Shown: positions 1 to 53,810, counted from the first letter of the stretch. The stretch is 64,000 nt of DNA from an uncultured Calditrichaceae bacterium (GCA_964416895.1 CAYQGB010000001.1:7065-71064); one strand, 5' to 3'. Numbers and translations are program-made. The notes: generated from the sequence alone by a model not told the origin.

Positions 1-1413
1 GGCCATCTGGTGCTCAGCACCCTGCACACCAACGATGCCTTCGCCACCCTTACCCGCCTGATGGATATGGGAGTGGATGCGGTGAAAGCCGGAGAAGCCA
101 TCCAGGCAGTGATTGCCCAGCGGCTGGTACGGCGCCTGTGCCCCCAATGCCGCCTGGAAACCGAACCGGATGAAATGGAAAAAAAGCTCATCCCGTTGAT
201 GAAGCGGCTCAACTGTGAACCCCGCTTCTTCCGGGCCAGGGGATGTCCCCATTGTGGATTTACCGGATATAAGGGGCGTACCGGGGTGTACGAAATCCTC
301 ATTCTGGACAATGACCTGAAGGCCATGATCCTGCGGCAAGCCCCCCTGTATGAGGTGCGCAAGGCCGCCCGGGAAAAGGGATTTCGCAATCTGTACGAAG
401 ATGCCCTGAACCTGATCAGCGAGGGCATCACCGATTATCGGGAAGTGCTGCGGGTGATTCATCCCGACAGTGATCAGGCGGTGGAACTGGAGGCGATGGA
501 GCCGGTATCGGCAGCCCCGGCGCCGGCGGAGGAACCGTTGCAGGAAGTAAAACCCCCGACAGAGGAAGCCCCGCTCCCGGTCACAGAGCGCGAATCTCTC
601 GCGGAGGCGCCGCCCCCCGACACCGCCCGGAGCGAATCGGCATCGGCCACCCTCTTGCTGGTGGAAGACAGCCGCACGCTGCGCGCCATCGCTCGAAAAT
701 TCCTGGAAGCCAAAACCAACTGGAAGGTACTGGAAGCCGCCGATGGCCTGGAGGGCCTGAACGTCCTGGAACACCATTCGGTGGATGCCATCGTGCTGGA
801 TTTGAAAATGCCCCACATGGACGGGTTCGAGTTTCTGGAACGCATCCGGGGAAATCCTTCCACGGCCGGGATCCCGGTGGTGATTCTGTCGGGGATGGAA
901 GGAGAATACATCACCCGGGGCATGAAACTGGGCGCGGACGACTATCTCATCAAGCCGTTCGACGGGCAGGCCCTGATCGAGAAAATACGAAATCTTCTGG
1001 ATCGCTCCCGCATCTTGATTGTGGAAGATAACAAGACCATGCGCAAGATGGCCCGGCGGATCATCGAAAAGAAGACCGCCTGGCAGGTGTACGAGGCGGA
1101 AGACGGCCTTCAGGCCCTGGAATTCCTCAAAGATCACCCGGTGGACGCCATCGTGCTGGATCTAATGATGCCCAATATGGACGGATTCGAGTTTTTGCAG
1201 CATCTCCGATTTAACCCGGAGACCGCGCTGATCCCGGTGCTGATCGTCACCGCTCTGGAAGGAGAGGACAGCGAACTCAAGAGTCTGGAGCTGGGAGCAG
1301 ATGACTACCTGGTAAAGCCCTATAAAGCCAGTATTTTAATTGCCCGCCTGCGACGGCTGCTGGAACGGGCCGGGGAAATCCGGCAAAAGGGGAAATCCGT
1401 TAAAGCCGCCTGA
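1..1413 (+). CDS. pilB: Type IV pilus / T2SS assembly ATPase (PilB/GspE family), C-terminal part (5' end lies outside the window), fused to two tandem CheY-like receiver (REC) domains
   Basis: Frame 1 translation begins GHLVLSTLHTNDA, the conserved GspE/PilB C-terminal motif. It is followed by the tetracysteine zinc-finger CPQC...CPHC-GFTGYKGRTGVYEIL. A P/E/A-rich linker then leads to two ~120 aa modules with the canonical REC signatures (VED...IVLDLKMP...ILSG...YLIKPF and IVED...IVLDLMMP...IVTA...YLVKPY). The ORF is open to position 1. Confidence 0.85.
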   Translation, partial: GHLVLSTLHTNDAFATLTRLMDMGVDAVKAGEAIQAVIAQRLVRRLCPQCRLETEPDEMEKKLIPLMKRLNCEPRFFRARGCPHCGFTGYKGRTGVYEILILDNDLKAMILRQAPLYEVRKAAREKGFRNLYEDALNLISEGITDYREVLRVIHPDSDQAVELEAMEPVSAAPAPAEEPLQEVKPPTEEAPLPVTERESLAEAPPPDTARSESASATLLLVEDSRTLRAIARKFLEAKTNWKVLEAADGLEGLNVLEHHSVDAIVLDLKMPHMDGFEFLERIRGNPSTAGIPVVILSGMEGEYITRGMKLGADDYLIKPFDGQALIEKIRNLLDRSRILIVEDNKTMRKMARRIIEKKTAWQVYEAEDGLQALEFLKDHPVDAIVLDLMMPNMDGFEFLQHLRFNPETALIPVLIVTALEGEDSELKSLELGADDYLVKPYKASILIARLRRLLERAGEIRQKGKSVKAA

Positions 1414-1461
1414 AAGCCGCCGATAATTAAGTATCCGGTTAAAAAGGAGTTGGAGAGGGAT

Positions 1462-2232
1462 ATGGAAGTCCTGTTAGGGATCACCGGGGCGGTGATCGGC
1501 AGCTTTTTGAATGTATGCATCTATCGGATTCCCAGAGGGCAATCGCTGATCCGCCCGGGTTCCCGATGCCCCTCCTGCCTGACTCCCATCCCCTTTTATC
1601 TCAACGTGCCCATTCTTTCGTATGTGATGCTGCGGGGCCGGTGCCATGCCTGCCGACGGCCAATCCCTTCACGCTATCCTCTGGTAGAAATTATTTCCGC
1701 CGCCTTAACCCTGGCCACCTACTGGCGGTTCGGGTTGACCGCTCCGTTTTTCTTCTACCTGATTTTCATCTACTTCCTGATCGTGATCAGCTTTATCGAT
1801 CTGGATACTCAATTGATCCATAACCGCCTGCTGCTGACGCTGCTGATCAGTGGGGTGGTATTGAACGCCGTGTTAGCGGTACATCCCTGGAAGGAGAGTT
1901 TCCTGGGATTCCTGGTGGGCGGGGGCACCCTGCTGGCCTGCGCGATTCTGGGAAAACTGCTTTTCCACAAAGAGGCCCTGGGCATGGGGGATGTCAAGCT
2001 GGCCGCCGTGGCAGGCTTCTTTCTGGGATGGAAAATGGTGGTGTACGCTCTGGGGTTTTCCTTTTTCCTCACCTTAATCCTGCTGATTCTGGCCCTGCCG
2101 TTTACTCGGTGGCGATGGGGGCAGTATATCCCCTTCGGACCGTTTCTGGCCCTGGGATGGATCATCTTTGTGTACTGGGGATCGCAACTGGTTCGATGGT
2201 ACTGGCAATATCTCATCGTGTATCCGGGATGA
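1462..2232 (+). CDS. pilD: Prepilin peptidase (A24 family, PilD/GspO)
   Basis: N-terminal Zn-binding CPSC...CHAC domain. Polytopic membrane profile. The GMGDVKLAAVAGFFLGW motif is typical of PilD. GGAG lies 6 nt upstream of ATG 1462; TTG 1450 is the alternative start. Confidence 0.85.
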   Translation: MEVLLGITGAVIGSFLNVCIYRIPRGQSLIRPGSRCPSCLTPIPFYLNVPILSYVMLRGRCHACRRPIPSRYPLVEIISAALTLATYWRFGLTAPFFFYLIFIYFLIVISFIDLDTQLIHNRLLLTLLISGVVLNAVLAVHPWKESFLGFLVGGGTLLACAILGKLLFHKEALGMGDVKLAAVAGFFLGWKMVVYALGFSFFLTLILLILALPFTRWRWGQYIPFGPFLALGWIIFVYWGSQLVRWYWQYLIVYPG

Positions 2233-2243
2233 CGGAGGAGGAT

Positions 2244-3443
2244 ATGCCCAATTTTAAGTATAAAGCCATTGACCCGGAGGGCAAAATCTTAGAAAGCCAG
2301 CTCAGCGCGGCGGATAAGATTGAGGTCATCCAGCAACTGCGCAACCTCAATCTGGTCACGCTGGAAATCCATAAAGCCGAAAAAACCGGGCCTAAGGCGG
2401 GTCGAAAAAATATCAAGAAAAAGCAGCTTATCCAGTTCACCAAGCAACTGCACACCCTGTTGAAGGCGGGGATCCCGGTTGTGCAATGCCTGCAATTGAT
2501 CCGGGAACAGCATGAGGAGCCGGCGTTTCAGGCGGTGGTAGAAGCACTGGCGACGAAGGTGAGCCAGGGAAGTGCCCTGTCGGAAGCGATGAGCGCTTTT
2601 CCCAAACTGTTTCCGCCCATCTACGTGAACTCGGTGCGAATCGGCGAGATCAGCGGCACCCTCGACGACACCCTGGCCTATCTGTACCGCTATCTGGAAG
2701 ATGAAGAGCAAATTCGCAAGGACGTGAAGAAAGCGCTGCGCTATCCCACGATTGTGCTTCTGGCGATTATCGGGGCGTTCGTGGTGTTCGTCAGCTTCGT
2801 GATCCCCGCCTTCAAACCCATATTCGAGATGACCGGCGCAGAACTCCCCCTGCCCACCCGGATTCTTCTGGGAATTAGCGATCTGGTCACCCACCACGGC
2901 TTGTTGCTGCTGGTGGGGGTTGGATTAAGCACGGCGGGAATCCTGTACTACAAACGCACTCCCGCCGGCCGGGCCCTGTTCGACCGGTGGATGCTGCGGC
3001 TGCCTCTGGTGGGAGAATTCGTGAAGAAAGTGGCCCTGACCCGGTTCGCCAAGATTTTCCACACCCTCAACCGTACCGGCGTGCCGGTGGTGCAGGCGTT
3101 TGAGATGCTGGCCGAGGCCATGGAAAATACGGTCTATCAGCAGGAATTGAGGAAAGTGCTGGAATACATGAAAGCGGGGGAAGGCATCGCCGCCTCCCTG
3201 GCGAAAAGCCCTTACTTCAGCCATTTGATGATCGAGATGATCACCATCGGGGAACGCTCCGGCTCCCTGGATGAAATGCTGGAAACCGTAATTCAGCACT
3301 ACGAACGAGAAGTCAGCGACGCCCTGCAGCGCCTGACCGCCTCCATCGAACCCATTACCACGGTGTTGATCGGAGGAATGGTGCTATTCCTGGCGCTGTC
3401 GGTATTGCTGCCATTGTGGGACACCATGATGCTGGTAAAATAA
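2244..3443 (+). CDS. pilC: Type IV pilus / T2SS inner-membrane platform protein (PilC/GspF family)
   Basis: About 400 aa with two GspF-type repeats (LxxGxP...TLDxxL motifs) and three TM segments. GGAGGAGG lies just upstream of ATG 2244. It overlaps the pilD stop, which suggests translational coupling. Confidence 0.85.
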   Translation: MPNFKYKAIDPEGKILESQLSAADKIEVIQQLRNLNLVTLEIHKAEKTGPKAGRKNIKKKQLIQFTKQLHTLLKAGIPVVQCLQLIREQHEEPAFQAVVEALATKVSQGSALSEAMSAFPKLFPPIYVNSVRIGEISGTLDDTLAYLYRYLEDEEQIRKDVKKALRYPTIVLLAIIGAFVVFVSFVIPAFKPIFEMTGAELPLPTRILLGISDLVTHHGLLLLVGVGLSTAGILYYKRTPAGRALFDRWMLRLPLVGEFVKKVALTRFAKIFHTLNRTGVPVVQAFEMLAEAMENTVYQQELRKVLEYMKAGEGIAASLAKSPYFSHLMIEMITIGERSGSLDEMLETVIQHYEREVSDALQRLTASIEPITTVLIGGMVLFLALSVLLPLWDTMMLVK

Positions 3444-3512
3444 AAAAGGAGTCTGCCACATGGAGTGGCGGAACAGCTTCACCCCAAAACCCAATACAAG
3501 GAGGTAGTTGCT

Positions 3513-3866
3513 ATGATCGCATTACGCAGTCAGAAGGGTTTCACCATGCTGGAACTGGTGATCGTGCTGGTGATTATCGCCACGCTGGCCGGTATCGGTG
3601 TGCCCAAATATCTGAGCATGCAGAAGCAGGCCCAGATTGCCGCGGATAAGGCCAACCGGGCAGCCATCCAGACCGCCATCATGAATCGGTATGTGGATAA
3701 GATCAATCGGGGCGACAGAGTGACCATGCAGGATATTGTCAACCAGTTCAACAGCAATCCCAATTCCTTCTTCCCCACCGGGAAAGTTCCCAATCCGCCC
3801 ACGGATATTAAGAAGCGCTATAAAGCCCGGATTCGGAACGATCGCATCGAAGTCTACATCCAGTAG
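3513..3866 (+). CDS. Type IV pilin / major pseudopilin with class III signal peptide
   Basis: N-terminus MIALRSQKG|FTMLELVIVLVIIATLAGIGVP is a prepilin cleavage/methylation motif: G at -1, F at +1, E at +5, followed by a hydrophobic helix. AAGGAGG lies 8 nt upstream of the ATG. The protein is about 118 aa. Confidence 0.8.
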   Translation: MIALRSQKGFTMLELVIVLVIIATLAGIGVPKYLSMQKQAQIAADKANRAAIQTAIMNRYVDKINRGDRVTMQDIVNQFNSNPNSFFPTGKVPNPPTDIKKRYKARIRNDRIEVYIQ

Positions 3867-3869
3867 AGG

Positions 3870-4298
3870 ATGAGGGTGCAGAGGGCAGTTGGAAAGCTGC
3901 TGCATGCTGCCGGGATGGAGCAGGGTCTATCTCTGTTGGAGATGGTGGTCATCATCGCCATCGCAGGGGTTACCCTGCCCATCCTGTTTTTATCCTTTGG
4001 TCAGGCCAATCAAACTCACCTCCAGAATCGGGTGATGCGGCAGTGCGTTAGCCTGGCCGCCAGCCGTATGGAACAGATCATCGCGTTCAAAGAAAACACG
4101 CCCGGTTGGGAAACCACGATTCAGCAATTCGCCGCAACGGAGGTGATCGACAGCCTCTATGTGCGGGAGACCCGGATAGCTCCCATCACCGGATGGGGCA
4201 GTGCCAACCTGAAGGCGGTGGAAGTTCAGGTGCGGGTGACGCATCCGGCGCTATCCGGGGGGTACTCACTGGTGTTGAGACTGAGAGAATCCGGCTAA
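3870..4298 (+). CDS. Minor pilin / pseudopilin (GspH/I-like), prepilin-type N-terminus
   Basis: QG|LSLLEMVVIIAIAG motif with E at +5 and a hydrophobic helix. The start is either ATG 3870 or ATG 3915. It sits directly after the pilin gene. Confidence 0.6.
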   Translation: MRVQRAVGKLLHAAGMEQGLSLLEMVVIIAIAGVTLPILFLSFGQANQTHLQNRVMRQCVSLAASRMEQIIAFKENTPGWETTIQQFAATEVIDSLYVRETRIAPITGWGSANLKAVEVQVRVTHPALSGGYSLVLRLRESG

Positions 4299-4307
4299 CA
4301 TCCGGCT

Positions 4308-4793
4308 ATGAAAACTTCTCCGGAAAAAGCGGTCAATGCCCGGGGGGCTACTCTGCTGGAAGTGGTGGTGGCTCTGAGCGTGGGCCTGACGCTTCTGACC
4401 GTACTGGTCCAGGTGGTTTTTCTAAGCAGTCGGGCGTATTCCCGGCTATATCAGGAGGCCCTGTGGATGGTCGATGTGCAGGAAGCCCAGCGATTGCTGT
4501 ATCGGGATTTGCAGCCGCTCTCCCCCGGAGATGTTCAGCAAATGGAAGAGGGGCGATTGGTGTTTACCGGTTCCGGGGGAGAGCAGGTGACCTATAGCTT
4601 TGAGGATAGCGCCCTGGTACGCAACGATGACGTGCTGGTGAAATTTTTGAAACGCTGGCCCCTGGAATATCTGGATGCTTCCGGGCAATCCACCACTCAA
4701 CCGGCGAACCTGACCTTTGTCCGGATTCACTGGGAAATTGAAAACGGGGGCTGGCGCCTTGAGCTGGAAGAGGATCTCTACGTGCGCAATTGA
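4308..4793 (+). CDS. Minor pilin / pseudopilin (GspJ/PilW-like), prepilin-type N-terminus
   Basis: N-terminus MKTSPEKAVNARG|ATLLEVVVALSVGLTLL matches the prepilin peptidase recognition pattern. Size is about 160 aa. Confidence 0.6.
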   Translation: MKTSPEKAVNARGATLLEVVVALSVGLTLLTVLVQVVFLSSRAYSRLYQEALWMVDVQEAQRLLYRDLQPLSPGDVQQMEEGRLVFTGSGGEQVTYSFEDSALVRNDDVLVKFLKRWPLEYLDASGQSTTQPANLTFVRIHWEIENGGWRLELEEDLYVRN

Positions 4794-4858
4794 GGTCGGG
4801 GGGGTGAATCCCGGAGTGTTCCAGAAAACCGGGGAGTACAGGGAAAAACCAAAGGATT

Positions 4859-4914
4859 GCAAATTTTAAAGTGCAAAATGCAAAGTGCAAAACGCAACAG
4901 GCAACAGGCAACAT
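4859..4914 (+). repeat. Degenerate heptanucleotide tandem repeat (8 x 7 bp): gcaaatt ttaaagt gcaaaat gcaaagt gcaaaac gcaacag gcaacag gcaacat
   Basis: Read directly from the sequence. It lies at the 5' end of, and inside the N-terminal coding part of, the GspK/PilX-like ORF. Confidence 0.7.
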
Positions 4915-5396
4915 CAGGGTTGAGAAACGAGAACCGGGGATTTGGAAAAATATTTTGGGTTCCAAAATGCCGGTCAGGATTATCCGGCCAGCAAGGCAGC
5001 ATCCAGTTGTTGATGCTGGTGTGGATCGTGATTCTGTCTGCGTTTTTCCTGGCCCTGTCCCGGTTTATCCATTCCGAAACCGAGGGACAGTTTTTTCAGG
5101 CCCGGGAGCGTAAGGCGTTCTATGCCGCGCAATCGGGGCTGGAATACGGGATCGGGCGCTTCCTCCGCAGCGATCCGGCCCAACTCTCCGATTGGAGCGA
5201 GACGGTAGACACCGGGGATTCCACCACCTGCGAGGTGATCGCCCGGCTGTTGCCGGGCAACCGGGCCTTAATTCAGGCTACCGGCCACGTGGAGGCCTAT
5301 AGCCGTTCGCTTCAGGTGCAAATTCAATATCGCAATCCCGGCGGGGGCGCCCCGATTCAGATTGAGCAGATCATCTGGAAGTATGTGGGGTGGTAG
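4878..5396 (+). CDS. GspK/PilX-like minor pilin (no Glu at +5); start codon uncertain
   Basis: The segment ...SGQQG|SIQLLMLVWIVILSAFFLALSRF resembles GspK/PilX N-termini (RQRG|VALLxVLxxL, lacking E5). The only in-frame starts are TTG 4857 and ATG 4878, and both lie within the heptad repeat. The gene sits between the pseudopilins and pilM. Confidence 0.45.
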   Translation: MQSAKRNRQQATSGLRNENRGFGKIFWVPKCRSGLSGQQGSIQLLMLVWIVILSAFFLALSRFIHSETEGQFFQARERKAFYAAQSGLEYGIGRFLRSDPAQLSDWSETVDTGDSTTCEVIARLLPGNRALIQATGHVEAYSRSLQVQIQYRNPGGGAPIQIEQIIWKYVGW

Positions 5397-5702
5397 GACG
5401 GGCATCTCTGCCTGTCGCAGCAACGGTCGCTTTTTCGGTAAACTTCACGGCTTCTTTGAGCATTCTGCGGTTGGATAGCATAAACCAGTTGATAAGGGAC
5501 AAAATTGGCGGCAGCGACACTCCATAAACCGACCATTGAATCACCCGGGGAAGAAACGGCGCTTCGTCCCCCTCCGGAACAGACCGGGGAAATCCCCCGG
5601 AGCACCAACGGGCATTTGACCGTATCCGGGAGTGAGGGAACCGTTTCCCCGGTAGAGCCGATAGTGGTCGGTTTCGGGGGACGTTTTTCCCAACCCCTTC
5701 GC

Positions 5703-7331
5703 ATGCTGTCCCGTGACTATCTTGCCGTCGATCTCCATCACGACCGCCTTCAATACGTACATTTCCAGAAGTTTCGCGCCGCGTTACGGGCGGTGGATTT
5801 CGGGGAGATGGCTCTGCCCCGGGAGTGGATCGGCGATCCCGCCGCCCTCACCGAAGCGCTCCGGGGGCTGCCGGAAGTGGCCCGTAAGGCATCCACCATA
5901 CTGACGGTGGGCTATTTCAGCCCCGCCATGCACCTGCGGGAAGTGGTACTGCCGGAGATCAAACGCCCCGCCGATCTGGTTCGGGCTATCGGGTTTCAGA
6001 ATACTCACGACCTCCCCCCGATTGACGGCCCGGTGGATTGCTGCTATCAAATCGTGGAAACCTTTACCGACGGGAGCCTGAAAAAGCAGCGTCTTCTGGT
6101 GCTGGTGGTTCCCCGTTCGGTGACCGACACCTGCTTAACCGCCTTCATCGACGCCGGGGCCGTTCCCACCCGGTTAATCCCCCGCCCGTTCCTGTTTCAG
6201 GAAGCGTATCGCCGGTTCGTGTCTGCACCGGGGAACGATCTGCTGGTGGAAGTCTCGGAACATTGCAGCACGATCGCCTATTTCCACCACGGGCAATTGC
6301 GATACCTCCGCACCGTGCCGGTGGGGTTTGTGCACATGGATCAAAGTGAATTGCACGCCCGCTCCCTAACCATCGATCCGGATGAACTGGCCCAGCAGGC
6401 GGAGGAAAATGTGTATCCGGAAACGATGGCCGAATCCGACGCCCTGCGGCGGCGATTGCAGCAAAAACTGGCCGAATTGCAGAGCCATCGGAACCCGGCT
6501 TTGCAGCGGTTATACGGGGAAATCTGGCGAACCCTGAAAAACCTTCCCGACGCTTCCTTTGAGCGAATTCTGCTGGCCGGATACGGCGGTCAGGTTCCCC
6601 CCCTGGCCCCTTTCCTGGGAACCATGTTTCACCGCCCCGTGAGCATCCTGGCCCCCCAATTTGATGAACCGGGAGAAGCTTCCCTTTACGCCCAGGGGCA
6701 ATACCTGTTGTCCATCGGCGCGGTGCTCACCGATAGCAAAACGGTGGATCTGCTTCCTTCCCAATACCGGCAACAGCGCACCTATCGCAAATTAAACAAG
6801 TGGCTGCTCATCTGGATGGGGCTGACCCTGGCGGGAATCGGAGCGATCTCCTTTCTGGGCAATCCCTCCCTGCAAATGCGGCAGGAGTTGCTGACCGAAT
6901 ATCAACAGCGGGTAGAACAACTGGAGGCCATCGAAACCGACTACCACCGCCTGTTGAAGGAACTGGAAGCCACCCGGAAGCAAAAGGAGGAGCTGCTAAG
7001 CGCCATCCCCCGGGATGATACCATTCTGCAAATGCTTCGCCTGTTCAGCCGGGAAACGCCCGGAGACATTCGGCTGCGCCGGCTGGAGATTTTCCCGGTG
7101 GAAGCGGAAACCCGGGAGAAAGCAAACGGCTCCCAAAAGCCGGCCGCCGACCACTACGAAATTCGAGTGGAAGGGCAAATTATCGACAACTACTTTCTGG
7201 CCGATCTGGTTTTGCTTAACTACATCAACCATCTGAACAGTTTACAGGTGTTCCGAAGCATTGAATTGCAGCAGGTACACAAGGAACCGGAAGAAAAACG
7301 GTTTGAATTTCAGATAAGCGCCCGGTTATGA
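5703..7331 (+). CDS. PilM-PilN fusion protein (actin-like PilM domain plus TM/coiled-coil PilN domain; GspL-like architecture)
   Basis: The N-terminal domain begins LAVDLHHDRLQYVHF (PilM-like actin fold). A TM helix KWLLIWMGLTLAGIGAISFLG is followed by a coiled-coil typical of PilN/GspL. The ORF is open from 5505; ATG 5703 was chosen with no clear SD. Confidence 0.7.
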   Translation: MLSRDYLAVDLHHDRLQYVHFQKFRAALRAVDFGEMALPREWIGDPAALTEALRGLPEVARKASTILTVGYFSPAMHLREVVLPEIKRPADLVRAIGFQNTHDLPPIDGPVDCCYQIVETFTDGSLKKQRLLVLVVPRSVTDTCLTAFIDAGAVPTRLIPRPFLFQEAYRRFVSAPGNDLLVEVSEHCSTIAYFHHGQLRYLRTVPVGFVHMDQSELHARSLTIDPDELAQQAEENVYPETMAESDALRRRLQQKLAELQSHRNPALQRLYGEIWRTLKNLPDASFERILLAGYGGQVPPLAPFLGTMFHRPVSILAPQFDEPGEASLYAQGQYLLSIGAVLTDSKTVDLLPSQYRQQRTYRKLNKWLLIWMGLTLAGIGAISFLGNPSLQMRQELLTEYQQRVEQLEAIETDYHRLLKELEATRKQKEELLSAIPRDDTILQMLRLFSRETPGDIRLRRLEIFPVEAETREKANGSQKPAADHYEIRVEGQIIDNYFLADLVLLNYINHLNSLQVFRSIELQQVHKEPEEKRFEFQISARL

Positions 7332-7894
7332 AAAAGATTGCCCTGAAACCACAGCGAGTATTTTTGATTCTGGTGATAGGATATATCCTCGGGCTGGGAG
7401 GTTGGTACCTGCTGGTGTATCAGCCCAGAGTACTGGAGGGCCGGGAGATGGATACCGCCTGGGAACAGATTCATCAGGTGCTGGAACGGGTGAACCTGGC
7501 CCTGCACTCCCTGGAAACCACCCGCAAAACGTTGCAGCAGGAAAAAACCGAACTGGCCAACATCCGGGCCGGTTTTATCCGCAGCCAGCACCTTTCCACG
7601 TTTACCCGGTCGGTAGAGGAACTGGCTCAAACCCATCGGTTGAAGCTGGTGGATTTCAGCCCGGCGGTGGAGAATTTTCTTCAGGATTCGGTGAAGACTC
7701 CCGTGCGCCCACTTCCGCTGTCGATGGTGGTGGAAGGACGGTATCTCGACATCGGCGCGTTTCTGGAAGCGTGGCAAAACTTCCCCGTTTATGTGACCAT
7801 CGAAGGCATCGCCATCGAGAAGGTAGAAGGTTCTCCGGTGCGGGTACGGGCAACCGTTCGGGCCAGGTTGTACACCCTGGAGGAACAAGGATGA
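7328..7894 (+). CDS. PilO/GspM-like inner-membrane pilus assembly protein
   Basis: 188 aa with an N-terminal TM segment (VFLILVIGYILGLGGWYLLVY) and a periplasmic coiled-coil plus ferredoxin-like region. Its position between pilMN and pilP fits. The ATG overlaps the pilMN stop (ATGA). Confidence 0.55.
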   Translation: MKKIALKPQRVFLILVIGYILGLGGWYLLVYQPRVLEGREMDTAWEQIHQVLERVNLALHSLETTRKTLQQEKTELANIRAGFIRSQHLSTFTRSVEELAQTHRLKLVDFSPAVENFLQDSVKTPVRPLPLSMVVEGRYLDIGAFLEAWQNFPVYVTIEGIAIEKVEGSPVRVRATVRARLYTLEEQG

Positions 7895-8382
7895 GCGGCG
7901 GTTTCCAGAACATGACCCGGGGCCAGAAGCGGAGCCTTATCCTCCTGCTGCTGGTGCTGGCCTACGGGGTATTCGATTTCATCACCAATCGAGAGGATTA
8001 TCTGGCCTTTTACGCCGGGGAGAAAACCGCCCTGGATATGGCTCTGGACTCCCTGAAGCAAGAAGGGGAAACCCCGGTGGATTCCACGGCCACAGAAGAG
8101 GCGCCGGTTACCACTGTGGTGTACACCGGGGAATGGGGTGAGGATCCCTTTGCCCTTCCGGCCAGGCCTTCCCGTGCCCGAAAGGCTCCTCCGGCGCAGA
8201 AGAGGCGGTTTCGTCTGCGGTTGCGAGGCGTCAGCATCAGTCAGACCCGCTCGGTGGCGCTGATTAACAACGCCGTGGTCAAAGAGGGCGAATACATCGG
8301 GCCGTACCGGGTGGTCAAGATATATCCCGATCGGGTGGTGTTAACCAATGGGCGTGAGCGACGGGTGTTAACGGTGGAATGA
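7891..8382 (+). CDS. PilP/GspC-like protein
   Basis: MSGGFQNMTRGQKRSLILLLLVLAYGV is a signal-anchor. The C-terminus RLRGVSISQTRSVALINNAVVKEGEYIGPYRVVKIYPDRVVLTNGRERRVLTV matches the PilP/GspC secretin-interacting domain pattern. GGAGG lies upstream and the ATG overlaps the pilO stop. Confidence 0.6.
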   Translation: MSGGFQNMTRGQKRSLILLLLVLAYGVFDFITNREDYLAFYAGEKTALDMALDSLKQEGETPVDSTATEEAPVTTVVYTGEWGEDPFALPARPSRARKAPPAQKRRFRLRLRGVSISQTRSVALINNAVVKEGEYIGPYRVVKIYPDRVVLTNGRERRVLTVE

Positions 8383-8437
8383 ACCGGGGAACCGGGTCAG
8401 TATATCTCGACAGGTTGGGAAAAACGGAGAAACGGAG

Positions 8438-9739
8438 ATGACAGAGATGCGGGCAATACAACGAGGCTGGTGGATGGTGCTGATGGTGCTGCTGGTGGGC
8501 ATTCCCCTTCTGGCCGAGAATCTTACCGAGAAGCTCAATCGTCGGGTCTCGCCCAATTTTGTGAACGCCTCCATTCGGGACATCCTGCGCGCCTTTGCCC
8601 GACAGTATGATCTGAACATCGTCATCGGAAAAGACGTTACCGGAACCGTCACCCTGCAATTGAAGAACGTCACCCTGCAGGATGCCCTGGATGTGCTCCT
8701 GAAATCCCAGGGGTATCGGTACATCGTGGATAACGAGGTCATCCTGGTGAAAGGTCCCACCAGCATCGCCAGCGACGAGTTGTCCACCCGGGTGATCAGG
8801 TTGGTGTATCTGGACGGGTATCAACTGCAAAAAACCCTGCAGCCGCTTCTGTCCGAGCGAGGGCAGATCGAGGCGCTGGTACTGGAAAAAGGAGACGGCG
8901 ATTCCGAACCCCGCTCCGATGCCCTGGTGGTCACCGATCTGCGGGAGAACGTGGAGAATATTGTGGCAGTGGTGAATCAATTAGACGTGCCCAGCCCCCA
9001 GCTCCAGATCGAAGTGCGCCTGGTGGAAACGGTGCTGGATGATGAAAAACGGGTGGGGCTGAAACTCCCCACTTCCATTCAGGTTTCGGCCACCGGGGCG
9101 GAGCAAAGTAAGGATGAAACCTCTTCGGAATCCTCCATCAGTCAGGGCAATCCCCTGGCGGCGACTTATGAACCGCCGGATCCCAACAGCCGGATTAATC
9201 TGGGCATACTCACGCTATCGGAGCTACAGGCGGCCCTGGAAGCGCTGGATAAGGATCAGAATTCCCGGCTGATTTCCAGCCCCCGGGTAACCACCCTGAA
9301 CAACCGCCGGGCTTTGATCAAAATCGGCACCGTGGTGCCGGTGCAGGAAATTTCCCGGGGAGTGGGCGGAGACCTGATCTCCTTCCGGGAAAAAGAGGTG
9401 AACCTCAATCTGGAAGTGATTCCCCGCATTAACCGGGACAGGCAGATTACCCTCACGGTGCATCCCATTCTGGAAGAGATCATCGGGTTCACCGGCCCAC
9501 CGGATGCCCCCCAACCGATCACCTCCAAGCGAGAAGTGGAAACCACCGTCACCGTGCAGGATGGGGAGACCGTGGTCATCGGAGGACTGATCAAAGAGAC
9601 CGAGAACAAGACGGTGGAAAAAGTATGGCTGTTAGGCGACATTCCCCTCCTGGGCTATCTGTTCCGCCACACCACCACCAAAAAGCAAAAAACCGATTTG
9701 CTGATTTTCATTACTCCCAAGATCATAACTCAGGAGTAA
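8438..9739 (+). CDS. Secretin (PilQ/GspD family), short form of about 433 aa
   Basis: N0-like domain (VNASIRDILRAFARQYDLNIVIGKDVTGTVTLQLKNVTLQDALDVLL). C-terminal secretin domain (VTTLNNRRALIKIG...VIGGLIKETENKTVEKVWLLGDIPLLGYLFRHTTTKKQKTDLLIFITPKII). GGAG RBS present. No AMIN-like N-terminal extensions are evident. Confidence 0.85.
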   Translation: MTEMRAIQRGWWMVLMVLLVGIPLLAENLTEKLNRRVSPNFVNASIRDILRAFARQYDLNIVIGKDVTGTVTLQLKNVTLQDALDVLLKSQGYRYIVDNEVILVKGPTSIASDELSTRVIRLVYLDGYQLQKTLQPLLSERGQIEALVLEKGDGDSEPRSDALVVTDLRENVENIVAVVNQLDVPSPQLQIEVRLVETVLDDEKRVGLKLPTSIQVSATGAEQSKDETSSESSISQGNPLAATYEPPDPNSRINLGILTLSELQAALEALDKDQNSRLISSPRVTTLNNRRALIKIGTVVPVQEISRGVGGDLISFREKEVNLNLEVIPRINRDRQITLTVHPILEEIIGFTGPPDAPQPITSKREVETTVTVQDGETVVIGGLIKETENKTVEKVWLLGDIPLLGYLFRHTTTKKQKTDLLIFITPKIITQE

Positions 9740-9746
9740 ACGGATC

Positions 9747-10772
9747 ATGAAAACATTGTCCGAGATTCTCCACTTCGCCATACAGAACAACGCCTCCGAT
9801 GTGCACCTGAGCAGCGGCATGTATCCCATGCTCCGGGTGCTGGGGAAGATCAAGAGCGTGACCGACGAGCCGATTCCTCACCGGCAACTGGAACAGATGC
9901 TCAGGGAGATTCTGGATGAGGAGCAGCGGCAAAAGTTCGAGAACCGGGAAGATATCGACTTTTCCTTCACCATGCCGGGAGTGGCCCGGGTGCGGGTGAA
10001 CATCTTCCATCACTTTGAAGGGATCAGCGCGGCCTTTCGGGTACTTCCCTCTCGAATTCGGTCCCTGGAAGAACTGCACATGCCTCCGGTGCTCAAAGAA
10101 TTGTGCAAGCGCAAGAAAGGGATGATTCTGGTCACCGGCCCCACCGGCAGCGGAAAGTCCTCCACTCTGGCCGCCATGATCCATCAGATCAACATGACCC
10201 GCAGCGAGCACATCATCACCATCGAAGACCCCATCGAATACGTGCACGCTTCCAAATACAGCATCATTCATCAGCGGGAGGTGGGTACCCACACCCGGGG
10301 GTTCGCCGAAAGTCTGCGCAGCGCCCTGCGGGAAGATCCGGACATCATTTTAGTGGGAGAGATGCGGGATCTGGAAACCATCTCCCAGGCCCTGACCGCC
10401 GCCGAAACCGGGCATCTGGTGCTCTCCACCCTGCACACCAATTCCGCCCCGGAAACCATCGACCGGATTGTGGATGCATTTCCCGGAGAGCAGCAGACCC
10501 AGATCCGGGTACTGCTGGCCAACGTGCTGGTGGCGGTGATCTCCCAGCGGCTGATCCCCATGCAGTTCAAACAGGATCGCATCGCCCTGATGGAGATTCT
10601 GATCGGATCCAAAGCGGTGGGGAATCTCATCCGGGAGGGAAAATCCCATCAATTGAGCACGGTGATGCAGACCGGCAGCGAATTTGGCATGCAAACGTTT
10701 GAGCAGCACTTCAAGAAGCTGGTGCAGCAGAACCTGGTGTCGCCCAATCTGAATCTGGGGGATTATCTATAA
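9747..10772 (+). CDS. pilT: Twitching-motility / pilus retraction ATPase (PilT family)
   Basis: 341 aa. Walker A GPTGSGKSST. The motifs LVLSTLHTN and GNLIREGK are PilT/PilU signatures. AGGAG RBS present. Confidence 0.85.
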   Translation: MKTLSEILHFAIQNNASDVHLSSGMYPMLRVLGKIKSVTDEPIPHRQLEQMLREILDEEQRQKFENREDIDFSFTMPGVARVRVNIFHHFEGISAAFRVLPSRIRSLEELHMPPVLKELCKRKKGMILVTGPTGSGKSSTLAAMIHQINMTRSEHIITIEDPIEYVHASKYSIIHQREVGTHTRGFAESLRSALREDPDIILVGEMRDLETISQALTAAETGHLVLSTLHTNSAPETIDRIVDAFPGEQQTQIRVLLANVLVAVISQRLIPMQFKQDRIALMEILIGSKAVGNLIREGKSHQLSTVMQTGSEFGMQTFEQHFKKLVQQNLVSPNLNLGDYL

Positions 10773-10836
10773 GCGATTTGATTGTGTACCATTTTTCAGG
10801 AAAGTGTCACATTCGTTCTCGTTACCAAACTTCTAC

Positions 10837-11078
10837 GGTGACATATGTCACCACAGCTGTCTCGTTGCTATCCCGACCGGTCGGGATAGCAACGGGGTAA
10901 GGCTCGAAACTGAGTTTCGACTATTATTGCGTTCCAAAACAGAGTTTTGGAACGAGAATAGTCCCGGATATCATCCTATAGTGACATATGTCACTATCTC
11001 TGTTTGGTTTGGTATTGAAACAGGAGTTTCAACCATTATTGCGTTCCCATCCCGCCGGGCGGGATGGGAACGAGATGA
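10837..11078. repeat. Palindrome-rich intergenic module: two tandem ~145 bp units, each with a GTGACATATGTCAC palindrome, a CGTTGC(T/C)ATCCCG...CGGGAT(A/G)G(C/G)AACG hairpin, a TCGAAAC/GTTTCGA-type hairpin and an ATTATTGCGTTCC box
   Basis: Read from the sequence. Perfect inverted repeats at 10837-10852, 10864-10893, 10904-10920, 10931-10953, 10980-10995, 11022-11039 and 11050-11078. They lie between the convergent pilT and anSME genes. Confidence 0.7.
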
Positions 11079-11134
11079 CCGACTTACTGAGTTTTGCAAA
11101 CCAGTTTCTTTTGAGTATAAAAATCAGAGATGAA

Positions 11135-12475
11135 TTATCGCCCACAGCACTTTTTGAATTTTCTCCCACTGCCACAGGGGCAGGGATCGTTCCGGCCCAC
11201 CCGTACCGAGGAAAAACCGCGATCTTTTTCTCCGGCCCAGATCATCACTCCGACTGCCGACCGCCCGGCCCGTAGTTCACGGGCCATAAACCGCATGTAC
11301 GGATCAATGTGCTTGAAAAATTTTTTATAACCGGCACAGAGGTAATTCAATCCCTCTTCCCCGTCCGGGGTTTTCAAGAAGCGGTGCTTGGGGCACTCGC
11401 CGTTGCAGGCAAAACGCACCTCGCAATTCCGGCAATATTGAGGTAGGGCATCCTTTTTATCCCGGCCAAATTTCTGCTGCTGAGGCGAATCTACCAGAGC
11501 GGCCAGCGGTTGCTCCAGAATGTTCCCCAGTCGATTCTCCGGATACACATAGTGATCGCAGGAGTAGAGGTCGCCGTTGTGCTCCAGCGCCAGAGCACGA
11601 CCGCAGGTTTCCCGGAACACACACAATCCCTGGGGTTTTCCCAGCCAGCTTTCCAGGCTCACCTCAAACAGGTTCACCACTACCTCCCCCACATCCCGGC
11701 GCACCCACTCATCGAAAATGGTGACAAGAAAATCGCCCCACTGCTCCGGTTCTACCGACCACTCGGCAACCTCGCACTCCCCGGGGGTATCCGGCTTTAC
11801 CAGGTGCAACTGATTCGGCAAGCCCCTTCTGGCCACCCGCTCCACCAGAGGAATAAACTGAATAAATCCGCTGCCAATCTCTTTGAGAAACCGATACACC
11901 TCCAGTGGATAGCGAGAATTTTCCCGATGCACCACGGTTAACGTGTTGAACTCTACCCGATGCCTTTTGAGTACCTCCAGACCGCGCATCACCTGATCGA
12001 AAGTCGGGCGTCCCCCCTTGTTCACCCGATAGCGATCATGCAACTCCCGGGGGCCGTCAATGGACAGCCCCACCAGGAATTTCTCCCGGGCCAGAAATTC
12101 GCCCCATTCGTCATTCAACAGGATGCCGTTGGTTTGCAAGGTATTTTCATACCGACGCCCATTTGCATATTTTTTCTGAAGCGCCACCACTTTGCGAAAA
12201 AAGTCCACTCCCAGCAAGGTAGGCTCGCCTCCCTGCCAGCCGAACACTTCCACCGCGGCGGTGCCGGATTCCATCTTTTGCCGGATGAAAGATTCCAGCA
12301 CCGCTTCGGACATCGCCCACTCGGTTTGCTCCGGATAGAGTTTCTCTTTTTCCAGATAGAAACAGTACCGGCAATCCAGATTGCAAATCGGCCCGGTGGG
12401 TTTGATCATCACATGAAAGGGCCTGGTGCGCAAGGGATTGGTCAAATTATCCATTGGCTCATCATGTTTAAGCAA
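11135..12475 (-). CDS. Anaerobic sulfatase-maturating enzyme (radical SAM / SPASM) with C-terminal SEC-C-like metal-binding motif
   Basis: CNLDCRYC radical SAM cluster motif. Cys-rich SPASM region (CVFRETCGRALALEHNGDLYSCDHYV, CRNCEVRFACNGECPKHRF). C-terminal NDPCPCGSGRKFKKCCGR. The start is TTG 12475 or ATG 12454. Confidence 0.85.
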   Translation of the reverse strand: MLKHDEPMDNLTNPLRTRPFHVMIKPTGPICNLDCRYCFYLEKEKLYPEQTEWAMSEAVLESFIRQKMESGTAAVEVFGWQGGEPTLLGVDFFRKVVALQKKYANGRRYENTLQTNGILLNDEWGEFLAREKFLVGLSIDGPRELHDRYRVNKGGRPTFDQVMRGLEVLKRHRVEFNTLTVVHRENSRYPLEVYRFLKEIGSGFIQFIPLVERVARRGLPNQLHLVKPDTPGECEVAEWSVEPEQWGDFLVTIFDEWVRRDVGEVVVNLFEVSLESWLGKPQGLCVFRETCGRALALEHNGDLYSCDHYVYPENRLGNILEQPLAALVDSPQQQKFGRDKKDALPQYCRNCEVRFACNGECPKHRFLKTPDGEEGLNYLCAGYKKFFKHIDPYMRFMARELRAGRSAVGVMIWAGEKDRGFSSVRVGRNDPCPCGSGRKFKKCCGR

Positions 12476-48344: not shown

Positions 48345-50051
48345 CTATTGGGGGGCAAACATTCCGAAATCTTCTTTATAAGCGTTTCGGGCGAATGAAG
48401 ACCACTCGTTTTCCGGAAGGTTTGCATAGACGAGGGAGCCATCAGGAGTGACTTTAAGAAAATAGATGTCGTTGCTTTTGCTATAGCTGGAAGTATTCCC
48501 GCAAACCACAATGCCCCCATCGGAAGCTAACAGAAGGTCGGCAACGCTTTCATTCCCATCTCCCCCCAGTGTCAGCGACCACAGCAGATCTCCGCTTTCG
48601 GTAAGTTTAAGCAGATAGGCATCGGTGAACTGGCTTTGTTGGGTAACCCGGGTAACTGCGGAACCGCCGAGATAAATTTCTCCCGAGGGGGCGATCAAAA
48701 TCGTTCCGGTGGATTCGTTGCGAGGGCCGCCAAAAGTGCGCTCCCAGATCAGGTTTCCGGAGGCATCTATTTTCAACACATACACATCCCGCCCACCGGC
48801 GCCCTGGCTGGACGTATATCCGCACAACACAAAGTTGCCATCGTTGGTCATGGCCACGTCGAAGGCCTCTTCCCACAATTCCTGACCCACCGCGCCGTAG
48901 GTGCGACTCCAGAGCACATTCCCATCCCCATTGACCAGGGTAATCAGAATGTCAAAATCCCCGGTCTGCCCGGAAGCCACAGCACCGACCAGCAACAGCA
49001 GGCTATCCGCCAGCGCTTCGACTCCGGAATAAAAAATTTCCCCGGCGTTGTTGTCGCCCACGGTGGTTTCCCACAGGGGGTTGCCGCTGGCATCCACCCG
49101 GAGCACCCAGGCATCCCGATCCGAACCGGAGGATTTCAACGTGGCGCCGGTTAGCAGGAAATCTCCGTTGTCGAGGAGCACAACTTCGGTCAATTGATCC
49201 GTAAAGGGACCGCCCACTGTTCGGGTCCATTCTGTTTGCCCGGCCCCGCTGAGCTTTATCAGATACCCATCCTGTCCCCCGGCGCCGAAGCTGGAAGTGT
49301 TTCCCACGATCAAGAAACTCCCATCCGGATGGGGAACCACGCCGCCGGCACCATCAGACTCGCTTCCCCCTTCGTTTACCGACCACAATACTTTGCCCCG
49401 GGCGTCGGTTTTTACCACATAAACATCGGCGAACTCCTCCGTGCCCGGGGGAATGGTCGATCCCACCAGCAAGTACCCCTGATCGGAGGTGGCGATCACG
49501 GCGCCGGCACCATCATCCCGGGTAGTTCCCAGAATGCGTTCAAAAGGGGTTATTCCGCCGACATCACCGGTTCCCTCCCCTTGCAGAGTATCCACGAATG
49601 CTCCCGCCTGGGTGGTCACGGAGAAAAAGGCCTGAGCAGAAGCCGCCGCCGAGGGCTGATATTGAAAGGGTAGCGCCACCGACTCTAATGGATCGAGGGT
49701 CACCGGAGGAGTCGGCACCGAAGGGGAGAGAGAAAAATCGCCTGCGTTGGGCCCTTCGATGGCGAACGATTGCAACGTGGTTGGTTTGCTGCTGTTGTTA
49801 AAGATCAACAACTCTCGCGTGGCCGAACTTCCCACGGGAATGCGCCCGAAATACAGGGGGTTGGGCGTAAACACCACTTCTACGGTTGGCTCCGGGGGAG
49901 GCGGGGGTTCGGTTGTACCTTTGCAGGCCAGCAATACCAGCATTCCCACCAGCACTCCCCGGATACCCTTCCCAACCACCTTTCCCATGGGAACATTCCT
50001 GGCGATGGATTTCATGGGTAAACCGCCTGTTACAGGGTTCAATAAGTTCAA
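48345..50051 (-). CDS. Lipoprotein with SBBP-type beta-propeller repeats
   Basis: Lipobox-like LVLLACKG. Repeated ~50 aa units (G.TxSxGxGxxDxYxxKLxxxGxxLW), as in the SBBP beta-propeller repeat. N-terminal Ig-like region. Confidence 0.5.
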   Translation of the reverse strand: MNLLNPVTGGLPMKSIARNVPMGKVVGKGIRGVLVGMLVLLACKGTTEPPPPPEPTVEVVFTPNPLYFGRIPVGSSATRELLIFNNSSKPTTLQSFAIEGPNAGDFSLSPSVPTPPVTLDPLESVALPFQYQPSAAASAQAFFSVTTQAGAFVDTLQGEGTGDVGGITPFERILGTTRDDGAGAVIATSDQGYLLVGSTIPPGTEEFADVYVVKTDARGKVLWSVNEGGSESDGAGGVVPHPDGSFLIVGNTSSFGAGGQDGYLIKLSGAGQTEWTRTVGGPFTDQLTEVVLLDNGDFLLTGATLKSSGSDRDAWVLRVDASGNPLWETTVGDNNAGEIFYSGVEALADSLLLLVGAVASGQTGDFDILITLVNGDGNVLWSRTYGAVGQELWEEAFDVAMTNDGNFVLCGYTSSQGAGGRDVYVLKIDASGNLIWERTFGGPRNESTGTILIAPSGEIYLGGSAVTRVTQQSQFTDAYLLKLTESGDLLWSLTLGGDGNESVADLLLASDGGIVVCGNTSSYSKSNDIYFLKVTPDGSLVYANLPENEWSSFARNAYKEDFGMFAPQ

Positions 50052-51061
50052 TTGCCCGATGGAGCGCCGCAGGAAGAGCGCACCATTAACCGGGTGTTTA
50101 ACACAATCTGAGCCGTGGGCCGGCCGGGTTCGTTGATCCGTTGAAACAGCATCTCTGCGGCCCGTCGTCCAATTTCAAAACCCGGCTGACTGACCGCCGT
50201 AAGCGGAGGGTTGAGAGAGATCGACCAGTACATATCGTCAAACCCCAGGATGGAGATGTCCCGGGGAATCCGCATATTTTGCCGGTGAAGCACCTCCAGC
50301 GCTCCTAACGTGAGCAGATTGTTGCCGGTGAACAGCGCCGTGGGCGGCGGGGAAAGCTCCAGCAATTCCCGGGCGATCCGCTTTCCGGCTTCCAGAGTAG
50401 AATCACAAAAACGCACCAGAGCCTCATCGTAGGCAATGCCGTTTTCCTCTAAAGCTTCCCGGTATCCGTTCAATCGTTCCCGATAAGTGGGAATTTTCAA
50501 GGGGCCGCAAATAAAAGCGATCCGACGGTGCCCTAATTGAACCAGGTACTGGATGGCATCGTACGCCCCCTGGCGATTGTTCACCACCACCGCATCCACG
50601 TTTACCCCCCGAAGTACCCGGTCGATGCACACCACCGGCAGGCCGCTTTTGACAATAGCTTTCACTTTGGCATCCTCTTCGTGGGCCGGAGCCACAATTA
50701 ACCCATCCACCGATTCCGAAAGCATGATGTCCAGATAAAAGCGTTCCTTTTCTTCACTCTGAGAGAAGTTGGACATCAGGAAGGCGTAGGACATCTCTGT
50801 GGTCGCCAGATCAATCCCATGAACCACTTCCACATAGAAGGGATTCTGGATGTCGGGAATCAACACCCCGATCAGATTGCTCTGCACCCGCTTGGCCCGC
50901 AACCGACGGGCAACCCGGTTGGGCTGAAAATTGAGTTGTTGAACCGCCTGCTCCACTTTGAGTCGGGTTTCCGGATTGACGTTTTTCGCTCCGTTTAACA
51001 CCCGGGAAACTGTGGCGATTGAAACCCCCGCCAGGCGGGCGACATCCTTGAGATTGGGCAT
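50048..51061 (-). CDS. LacI family transcriptional regulator
   Basis: N-terminal HTH MPNLKDVARLAGVSIATVSRVLNG followed by a periplasmic-binding-protein-like sugar-binding domain. 337 aa. Confidence 0.85.
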   Translation of the reverse strand: MPNLKDVARLAGVSIATVSRVLNGAKNVNPETRLKVEQAVQQLNFQPNRVARRLRAKRVQSNLIGVLIPDIQNPFYVEVVHGIDLATTEMSYAFLMSNFSQSEEKERFYLDIMLSESVDGLIVAPAHEEDAKVKAIVKSGLPVVCIDRVLRGVNVDAVVVNNRQGAYDAIQYLVQLGHRRIAFICGPLKIPTYRERLNGYREALEENGIAYDEALVRFCDSTLEAGKRIARELLELSPPPTALFTGNNLLTLGALEVLHRQNMRIPRDISILGFDDMYWSISLNPPLTAVSQPGFEIGRRAAEMLFQRINEPGRPTAQIVLNTRLMVRSSCGAPSGN

Positions 51062-53670: not shown

Positions 53671-53774
53671 GGGTGGCTCCTGGTCATGGATTTATCGCTA
53701 AAGAAGATGAAAGATAAAAGGTTAAACTCAGTTCGGTTATTTTTTTGAGTTCCAAATTTTCTGCTACTGTTCAT

Positions 53775-53810
53775 CTCGTTCACATCCCGAAGCGTCGGGA
53801 TGGAAACGAG
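53775..53810. repeat. Third copy of the CGTT-CATCCCGA...TCGGGATGGAAACG palindrome family seen at 10864-10893 and 11050-11078
   Basis: CTCGTTCACATCCCGA-agc-GTCGGGATGGAAACGAG; read from the sequence. Confidence 0.6.

Follow-up and report, generated by a model that had tools for sequence, protein, structure and literature searches.

Which machine this locus encodes, a type II secretion system (T2SS), a type IVa pilus (T4aP) or a mixture of the two, is the question addressed here. The locus occupies positions 1-10772 of a 64,000-nucleotide stretch (the window) from an uncultured Calditrichaceae bacterium (GCA_964416895.1, CAYQGB010000001.1:7065-71064), and an earlier note on this stretch had described it as an operon mixing T2SS-like and T4aP-like traits. 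We consider it probable that the locus gives a diderm Calditrichota bacterium a complete, retractile T4aP machine with a receiver-bearing motor, all of it transcribed as one operon. The accessory parts PilT, PilM, the PilN junction and PilO are all of T4aP type, and the secretin appears to be so too. Membership in the T4aP class rests on these parts; the extension ATPase and the platform protein were compared by profile scores and by scores against the Protein Data Bank (PDB). The mixed appearance seems to be largely an effect of profile cross-hits, and the noteworthy part of the locus is the extension ATPase, which is fused to a receiver (REC) domain and in this genome is doubled to two receivers.

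Six-frame listing of open reading frames (ORFs), translation and refinement of start codons gave 12 co-directional, tightly packed genes, all on the + strand, and Pfam and NCBIfam scans agree with the identities assigned to them. Four-nucleotide ATGA overlaps join pilD to pilC, pilMN to pilO and pilO to pilP. The widest intergenic gaps lie upstream of the PilX-like gene and of pilMN, both of which have uncertain start codons. A scan of positions 1-12000 found promoter-like and terminator-like sites in the cluster no more often than in shuffled sequence, and an Rfam scan of the same interval gave no match. The contiguous one-strand operon with overlapping genes reported in the earlier note was thus recovered, with all the components it listed located at 1-10772; of its four to five pilin-like genes four were found, and a fifth was not.

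The order of all 12 genes is identical in at least six other loci, namely L002/L007 (a 4.73-Mb Calditrichales chromosome), L006, L008, L010 and L013, and also in L009 as far as that contig extends. Every locus with this order that carries an organism name belongs to Calditrichota; a contig scan with highly specific patterns derived from a secretin alignment yielded four Calditrichota loci only. Orthologue identity to the window proteins ranges from 25-29% (PilMN, PilO) up to 50-57% (PilC, PilQ, PilT). Because all 12 orthologues keep their order in other loci, the operon is not a chance grouping, and it is conserved at phylum level in Calditrichota. What varies between the loci is the length of the PilX-like protein, a lipoprotein gene after pilT and the second REC domain.

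The pilM-pilN fusion lies at 5505-7331, with candidate starts at 5505 (TTG), 5664 (GTG) and 5703 (ATG). It consists of an actin-like PilM domain, the PilN xNLLP motif, a transmembrane helix, a coiled coil and a ferredoxin-like PilN domain. A profile of six Calditrichota sequences was searched against the PDB and matched Myxococcus xanthus PilM with E = 4.7e-22, as well as Thermus and Pseudomonas PilM; GspL was unmatched in this search. An AlphaFold model of the fusion, based on 35 homologues, reached a mean pLDDT of 83.6. When the model was compared with the PDB using Foldseek, ranks 1-10 were all PilM (E 1e-19 to 1e-16, about 360 columns, target TM-score 0.62-0.74 for the top matches), FtsA came after PilM, and the cytoplasmic part of GspL came no higher than ranks 32-34, with about 206 columns covered. 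Towards its C-terminus the model shows the transmembrane helix together with a long coiled coil and an alpha/beta domain; the PilN domain itself had no profile match. In most of the 35 fused homologues the PilM domain is followed first by xN[LF][LIV]P, then by basic residues ahead of a transmembrane helix, and the N-terminus of Escherichia coli HofN, MNPPINFLPWR, carries the same PilN signature. The fused protein is therefore predicted, from the model, to have the full PilM actin-like fold and not the reduced GspL fold, and by its sequence it is an end-to-end fusion of pilM and pilN, not a GspL. A PilM-PilN fusion has been regarded as functionally analogous to GspL (Berry and Pelicic 2015). 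An index-free HMMER search returned 274 related PilMN clusters, mostly of 500-950 aa, so that PilMN fusions are widespread.

The secretin (8438-9739; Pfam Secretin 2e-45) is a protein of 433 aa with a signal peptide, an N0 (STN) domain, one N domain and the secretin domain. Only one Secretin_N domain was matched, N2 and N3 were without match, and no AMIN domains were detected; it is their absence that makes the protein short. The PilQ model TIGR02515 scored 263 bits over positions 1-427 of 428, compared with 225 bits for the GspD model. The E. coli HofQ models (412 aa), with 164 bits, likewise align with the secretin from end to end. PilQ structures in the PDB matched at 119-144 bits from residues 28-35 to 430-432, whereas GspD structures matched at up to 107 bits with alignments starting from residue 156 at the earliest, and E. 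coli GspD is a protein of 650 aa. Over its whole length the secretin thus appears nearest to the PilQ/HofQ type.

The final gene of the operon, here and in every related locus, is pilT (9747-10772), which encodes the retraction ATPase. It scored 467 bits with TIGR01420 (cut-off 319) and carries the Walker A motif GPTGSGKS and the PilT motifs AVGNLIRE and GMQT. The pilO gene (7328-7894) matched the Pfam PilO model with 2.5e-8 and 34.6 bits (cut-off 22). For the T2SS counterparts, the Pfam and NCBIfam models T2SSL, T2SSM, T2SSK, T2SSI and T2SSJ had no match among the operon proteins, and the Calditrichota profiles scored 3 bits or less against E. coli GspL and GspM.

Prepilin processing is assigned to pilD, the prepilin peptidase/N-methyltransferase gene (1462-2232; Pfam A24_N_bact 2e-33, Peptidase_A24 6e-21), which has orthologues in the related loci. 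The major pilin (3513-3866; N_methyl motif 3e-7) is preceded by an AGGAGG ribosome-binding site and has the leader MIALRSQKG and a mature part starting with FTMLE, of about 108 aa and without cysteines; its profile matches are weak (GspG 40 bits, PilA 33 bits, and ComGC). Minor pilin 1 (3870-4298, start possibly 3915) has the prepilin signal G↓LSLLE, a weak N-terminal match to the GspH model and orthologues in L002 and L006. Minor pilin 2 (4308-4793) has the signal G↓ATLLE, weak GspI and GspJ matches, and orthologues as well. The signal G↓(F/L/A)T/SxLE is thus present in three pilins, and the fourth, the PilX/GspK-like protein (4857-5396, start uncertain between 4857 and 5013), has a hydrophobic N-terminal helix without Glu5. 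No Pfam or NCBIfam profile matched this last protein, T2SSK included, and its assignment follows from the N-terminal 80-120 residues, which are conserved with L002 and L006 and include AFYAAQSGLEYG. It measures 179 aa in the window and 314-569 aa in the orthologues (L002 15639-17315, L006 15606-17294, L008 5382-7079, L010 5904-6848, L013 15504-16517), its C-terminal part ranging from almost nothing in the window to about 450 extra residues elsewhere. Such length variation would be expected of a variable tip module.

The extension ATPase (PilB/GspE family; its 3' part at 1-1413) and the platform protein PilC (PilC/GspF family; 2229-3443; Pfam T2SSF in two stretches, 1e-60) were compared with both families. 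In NCBIfam the catalytic core of the ATPase scored 558 bits with PilB and 546 with GspE, both under their cut-offs, and in the PDB the best matches were T4aP PilF/PilB at 387-420 bits, against 370 bits for GspE over a shorter stretch. The platform scored 346 bits with GspF, 311 with Thermus PilC and 277 with Myxococcus PilC, again all under their cut-offs, and in the PDB its best match was M. xanthus PilC with 225 bits, with GspF fragments only at about 60 bits. The PilP-like protein (PilP/GspC-HR-like; 7891-8382) has an N-terminal transmembrane anchor, no lipobox cysteine and a short C-terminal beta domain. It was assigned from orthologues in the related loci and from weak T2SSC/GspC matches (T2SSC 22 bits, cut-off 27; both covering residues 88-161 only, the HR region); no T4aP reference matched it, and no PDZ domain was found in Pfam or NCBIfam.

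A number of these results weigh against the T4aP assignment. The ATPase, the platform and the major pilin reach no curated T4aP or T2SS cut-off, and the T2SS models are equal or slightly ahead for the platform and, with GspG, for the major pilin. Among E. coli references the ATPase scored 458 bits with GspE and 393 with HofB. With 263 bits the secretin stays under the PilQ cut-off (284). Recognition of PilP is weak, and its anchor is a transmembrane helix, as in GspC, not that of a lipoprotein. Furthermore, the "T2SS" of Bacteroidetes is needed for cellulose use and yet clusters with T4aP, so a T4aP-like sequence is not proof of a pilus. Paired E. coli references (Gsp against Hof/Ppd) were also tried as a discriminator and rejected: the core leans slightly towards Gsp, and the Hof proteins are themselves divergent. 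The T2SS has been placed as a descendant of the T4aP, the Bacteroidetes "T2SS" always clusters with T4aP, and PilT is frequently lost in T2SS (Denise et al. 2019). Given this descent and this clustering, near-equal scores do not discriminate between the two; a deep T4aP lineage would be expected to give them.

The traits that had suggested a T2SS component can now be considered together. T4aP systems, too, have a core minor-pilin set homologous to GspH-K, so the number of pilin-like genes, which the earlier note had counted as T2SS-like, is not diagnostic. The PilM-PilN fusion had been given the same label, but it matches PilM in full, has no GspL match, shows the xN[LF][LIV]P junction and has a precedent in the T4aP of Clostridioides difficile. 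The short secretin does not fit the label either, as it aligns end to end with PilQ/HofQ and has one N domain, and GspD proteins are longer. The reading of PilT as a T4aP trait holds, with the curated cut-off passed and the NLIRE and GMQT motifs in place. A mixture of T2SS and T4aP is thus mostly unsupported by the full PilM, the PilQ/HofQ-type secretin, PilT and the missing GspL, GspM and GspK matches. The statement that T4aP genes are scattered in model organisms describes the usual case (Denise et al. 2019), but a single locus is known in C. difficile; the single-locus organisation is unusual compared with proteobacterial T4aP, but has a precedent.

A machine of this composition might instead serve secretion or surface display, with a short pseudopilus of the small GspG-like pilin pushing folded hydrolases through the secretin and PilT resetting the pseudopilus. 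We regard this as unlikely. The size of the major pilin (about 108 aa) and its best profile, GspG, agree with it, as do the slightly higher scores of the platform and the ATPase with GspF/GspE than with PilC/HofB and the membrane anchor and weak T2SSC/GspC matches of the PilP-like protein; against these stand the missing profile matches to GspL, GspM and GspK, the predicted full T4aP-type fold of PilM and a secretin without N2 and N3. The Cytophaga cluster, needed for cellulose use and grouping with T4aP, would be the precedent, but the report on it makes no mention of PilT, which is the conserved last gene in all loci related to the window. Also in favour, numerous exported proteins of glycan-degrading or sulfatase-related kind are encoded in the remainder of the window, although several of these exported neighbours end in FlgD_ig-like domains. 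Such C-terminal domains hint at another export route. To our knowledge, the T2SS lacks PilT. This is in part covered by the frequent loss of PilT in T2SS described by Denise et al.

It is quite improbable that the pilus is dedicated to DNA uptake (competence), importing DNA by PilT-driven retraction in the manner of the Hof/Com systems known from Enterobacteriaceae and Pasteurellaceae. The E. coli HofQ models (412 aa, "DNA uptake porin") can indeed be aligned with the full length of the secretin and share its N0-N1-secretin layout, but they score far below the PilQ model (164 against 263 bits); the pilin matches ComGC weakly and PilT is present, but neither DNA-receptor genes nor ComEA/ComEC genes were found in the operon or the window, and a REC-controlled motor, together with the Che linkage in L004 described below, fits control of motility or adhesion better. 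Least probable of all is a true T4aP/T2SS intermediate or chimera that took its parts from the two lineages, an origin that has been suggested for the chlamydial T2SS. The T4aP-like PilQ, PilM, PilO and PilT beside slightly better GspF and GspG scores and a weak GspC match could be cited for it, along with the inferred origin of the T2SS from T4aP (Denise et al.). Against it, the scores of the ambiguous proteins differ by little (12-35 bits on 240-560), the preference reverses with PDB references (PilB 414-420 against GspE 370; M. xanthus PilC the best platform match), the pattern is the one expected of a deep T4aP lineage compared with Proteobacteria-dominated models, and the discriminating accessory parts are all of T4aP type.

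The T4aP machine proposed here has the same parts list, with a canonical PilT, as those of M. xanthus, Thermus thermophilus and Pseudomonas aeruginosa, which were also the source of the best structure matches (PilF/PilB, M. xanthus PilC, PilM and PilQ). It differs from them in that its genes form a single operon, PilM is joined to PilN in one polypeptide, the AMIN-less secretin has 433 aa compared with 571-901 aa, PilP has a transmembrane anchor where theirs is a lipoprotein, the minor pilin-like genes number only three, genes for a pilotin, TsaP or PilY1 were not seen, and the ATPase carries REC domains and lacks the c-di-GMP motif. The primary T4aP cluster of C. difficile is likewise a single locus, with a fused PilMN, PilA1, PilB, PilC, PilO, PilT, PilD and three minor pilins. 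C. difficile is, however, a monoderm without PilP or secretin, and the order of its cluster, pilA1-pilB1-pilC1-pilMN-pilO-pilV/U/K-pilT-pilD, differs from that of the window operon; no REC domain on its PilB is named in the source. What is new compared with C. difficile is that the operon also includes the parts of a diderm, PilP and the secretin, that its gene order is another and that the ATPase is fused to REC.

Nearest among related phyla is the "T2SS" of Bacteroidetes (Cytophaga hutchinsonii chu_3191-3202, Flavobacterium johnsoniae Fjoh_0611-0622), also encoded in one locus, with very divergent PilM/N/O/P-like proteins recognised only by HHpred and a small GspG-like pilin. Unlike in the window, no PilT is reported, the genes are not one operon and their order is another; the likeness is one of published description. 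Secretion by this system was inferred from cellulose-utilisation phenotypes. Bacteroidetes and Calditrichota belong to the same superphylum, Fibrobacteres-Chlorobi-Bacteroidetes (FCB). In E. coli, the Hof/Ppd proteins (HofB, HofC, PpdD and HofMNOPQ) share with the window operon an AMIN-less secretin, of 412 aa and with the same domain layout, and their PilN, HofN, starts with the INFLP motif, the counterpart of xNLLP at the junction of the fusion; they differ in their scattered loci, separate PilM and PilN, and distant sequences (HofQ 157 bits).

Within the window, the 470 codons of the ATPase encode the end of the catalytic domain with a CxxC...CxxC zinc motif, a linker rich in Pro, Glu and Ala, and then two receiver domains, REC1 (646-999) and REC2 (1006-1359), which are 55% identical to each other. 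In Pfam the fragment matched T2SSE (6e-35) and, in two stretches, Response_reg (8e-57). These two C-terminal REC domains were absent from the description in the earlier note.

As the gene is truncated by the start of the window and its 5' end lies outside, the first 409 residues were taken from a near-identical NCBI contig, L001, on which the ATPase starts at 4022, giving a full-length protein of 879 aa. The window and L001 overlap over 501 nt with 4 mismatches, so the two genomes are near-identical but were assembled separately. P0011, a partial NCBI protein (Calditrichaeota metagenome-assembled genome GCA_003695965.1), is identical over the first 166 window residues. Upstream on L001 the frame extends to MLKLENSS..., and this beginning can be aligned with the N-terminal ends of homologues. 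The deposited ATPase start on L001 is about 67 codons too late (4022-4223), the deposited kinase call (1211-4201, - strand; REC-PAS-HisKA-HATPase) overlaps the true start, and the contig stops within the ATPase gene, just ahead of the part encoding the REC domains.

The combination of T2SSE with one REC domain was present in 119 of the 120 best matches to the ATPase fragment, many of them labelled Calditrichia, Calditrichaeota or Caldithrix abyssi. Two REC domains were found in none of these 119 homologues, and the second was seen in this genome alone. The receiver common to the whole ATPase-REC family is REC2: 115 of the 119 homologues are nearer to REC2 than to REC1, the less family-like copy. 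From this comparison REC1 is an extra copy of this lineage, and since REC1 has diverged from REC2 it is not an assembly artefact. The acidic pocket, the phospho-acceptor Asp and the T/S, Y/F and K switch residues of a receiver are intact: E12, D13, D57, S/T87, Y106 and K109 are present in both copies, and the set E12, D13, D57, T/S87, Y/F106, K109 is kept in 28 of 28 aligned homologues, under a numbering that follows CheY.

A c-di-GMP input of the MshEN type was looked for with the tandem motif RLGxx(L/V/I)(L/V/I)xxG(L/V/I)(L/V/I)xxxxLxxxLxxQ. Neither the strict, the relaxed nor the core form was matched in the N-terminal 160 residues of this ATPase, and the motif was unmatched in 106 of 107 full-length ATPase-REC homologues. 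The Pfam MshEN fold domain is still found in the relatives of the ATPase, and MshEN domains can co-occur with REC (Wang et al. 2016). A literature search found no described PilB-REC fusion and nothing specific on Calditrichota pili.

The ATPase-REC genes lie in varied genomic settings. In L004 (10001-19553) the ATPase-REC gene is directly followed by genes for CheA, CheW, a TonB_C protein, MCP, CheY, CheB and CheR. The ATPase encoded there is 37% identical, no pilus genes adjoin it, and PSD/PSCyt-domain genes are among its neighbours. A relative with a double zinc-ribbon insert occurs in L012 (7267-12445), beside a T2SSG-like pilin gene, a divergent second PilB-like ATPase gene without REC and several small genes without Pfam match; L012 is a different pilus-type context for the fusion. 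In L003, L005 and L011 the ATPase-REC genes are orphans. In the source genome, as represented by L001, a REC-PAS-HisKA-HATPase hybrid kinase gene divergently adjoins the ATPase gene. This adjacency is not conserved: it is not kept in L002, L006 and L013, the PAS kinases near L002 and L006 are of other architecture and 5 kb away, and no kinase was found within 10 kb in L013. A conserved cognate kinase beside the operon was therefore rejected, as the neighbouring kinases vary in architecture and position among genomes.

By homology to the Myxococcus, Thermus and Pseudomonas machines, the steps of a T4aP of this composition would be as follows. PilD would cleave and methylate the four prepilins, and the two minor pilins and the PilX-like protein would prime assembly of the tip. 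The hexameric PilB-type ATPase would turn the PilC platform and so add the small major pilin, while the covalent PilM-PilN, with PilO and the membrane-anchored PilP, would join the motor to the compact PilQ/HofQ-type secretin. PilT would take the place of PilB to retract the fibre. Phosphorylation of the REC domains by a histidine kinase or CheA would turn the extension motor on or off, or govern how it competes with PilT for docking to PilM/PilC. In this way the motor would receive two-component or chemosensory signals directly, and not via a separate CheY-like protein or c-di-GMP. While the content and order of the genes, their conservation, the identity of the domains and the intact REC residues are shown, we infer that the receivers are phosphorylated, by which kinase and with what sign, and what the machine does for the cell (twitching, adhesion or DNA uptake).

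Stated for the whole family, the Calditrichota PilB-REC proteins may be phosphorylation-gated extension motors in which MshEN c-di-GMP sensing and free CheY-like adaptors have been replaced, with the tandem REC domains of this genome integrating two kinases, or one of the pair serving for dimerisation as in PleD; this is a tentative proposal, to which we give a little less than even chances. In Synechocystis (PixG/PixE) and Pseudomonas (PilG/PilH) a receiver likewise carries kinase or chemosensory input to the extension motor. PatA-type response regulators of Synechocystis act in trans: they bind to PilB1 as well as PilC, and determine in which direction pilus assembly runs. The regulator in that case is a separate protein that binds PilB1 via PATAN, whereas in the window the REC domains are covalently attached to the C-terminus of the ATPase and there is no PATAN.

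Directly 3' of pilT, several relatives have a gene of about 470 aa (L007 12313-13749, L008 12314-13723, L009 7247-8659, L010 12295-13698), whose product has a lipoprotein-type signal peptide and no Pfam match; three translated orthologues are 50-52% identical to the L007 copy. The gene is absent from the window (no tblastn match) and from L013. The lipoprotein may belong to the machine as an accessory part, or be carried by it as cargo. In the window this place is taken by a hairpin-rich spacer without strand assignment (10773-11134), between pilT and a convergent sulfatase-maturase gene. It contains two units 143 nt apart, each made of the 14-nt palindrome GTGACATATGTCAC followed by a perfect GC-rich stem of 15-16 bp, with hairpins at 10863-10894 and 11042-11072; the palindrome has 2 matches in the 64 kb, with 0 expected. 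Further short hairpins and a 24-nt direct repeat are present, and the spacer had no Rfam match.

The genes downstream are convergent and unrelated to the operon, beginning with an anaerobic sulfatase maturase, an enolase-family dehydratase and an aldehyde dehydrogenase. Positions 11135-51061 (- strand) look like a sulfated-glycan utilisation cluster, with genes for the anaerobic sulfatase maturase, a sulfatase, GH31, BNR/sialidase-like, BT_1020-like and FGE-sulfatase proteins, beta-propellers of the FG-GAP/ASPIC and LVIVD kinds, transporters (GntP and SSF), a TonB-dependent receptor and a LacI regulator; two of the large exported proteins have C-terminal FlgD_ig-like domains. Positions 50001-54000 may be acquired DNA; their G+C content is 0.44-0.46, compared with about 0.55 elsewhere, and they hold an ORF without Pfam match (51361-52404) and a DUF58/VWA gene (52765-53670).

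For annotation, the operon illustrates that apparent T2SS/T4P "mixtures" in deep-branching phyla can stem from profile cross-hits, and that the PilM or GspL fold, the N domains of the secretin and PilT separate T4aP from T2SS more reliably. A diderm T4aP that is complete in 12 compactly arranged genes, with PilM and PilN naturally fused and the secretin reduced to a minimum, is also attractive for heterologous reconstitution and for structures. Relatives found in the search carry the label of Caldithrix abyssi, a cultured species. How the Pil-Chp, Tax and Frz systems switch between pilus extension and retraction at the motor is still debated, and is usually ascribed to free CheY-like proteins or c-di-GMP. 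A widespread family of receiver-fused extension ATPases, one of them beside a full Che cluster, offers a simple system for studying this sensory-motor coupling. If the proposed gating is true, the ATPase would be a natural "Rosetta-stone" fusion, pointing to what CheY-like regulators directly target on the T4P motors of other bacteria.

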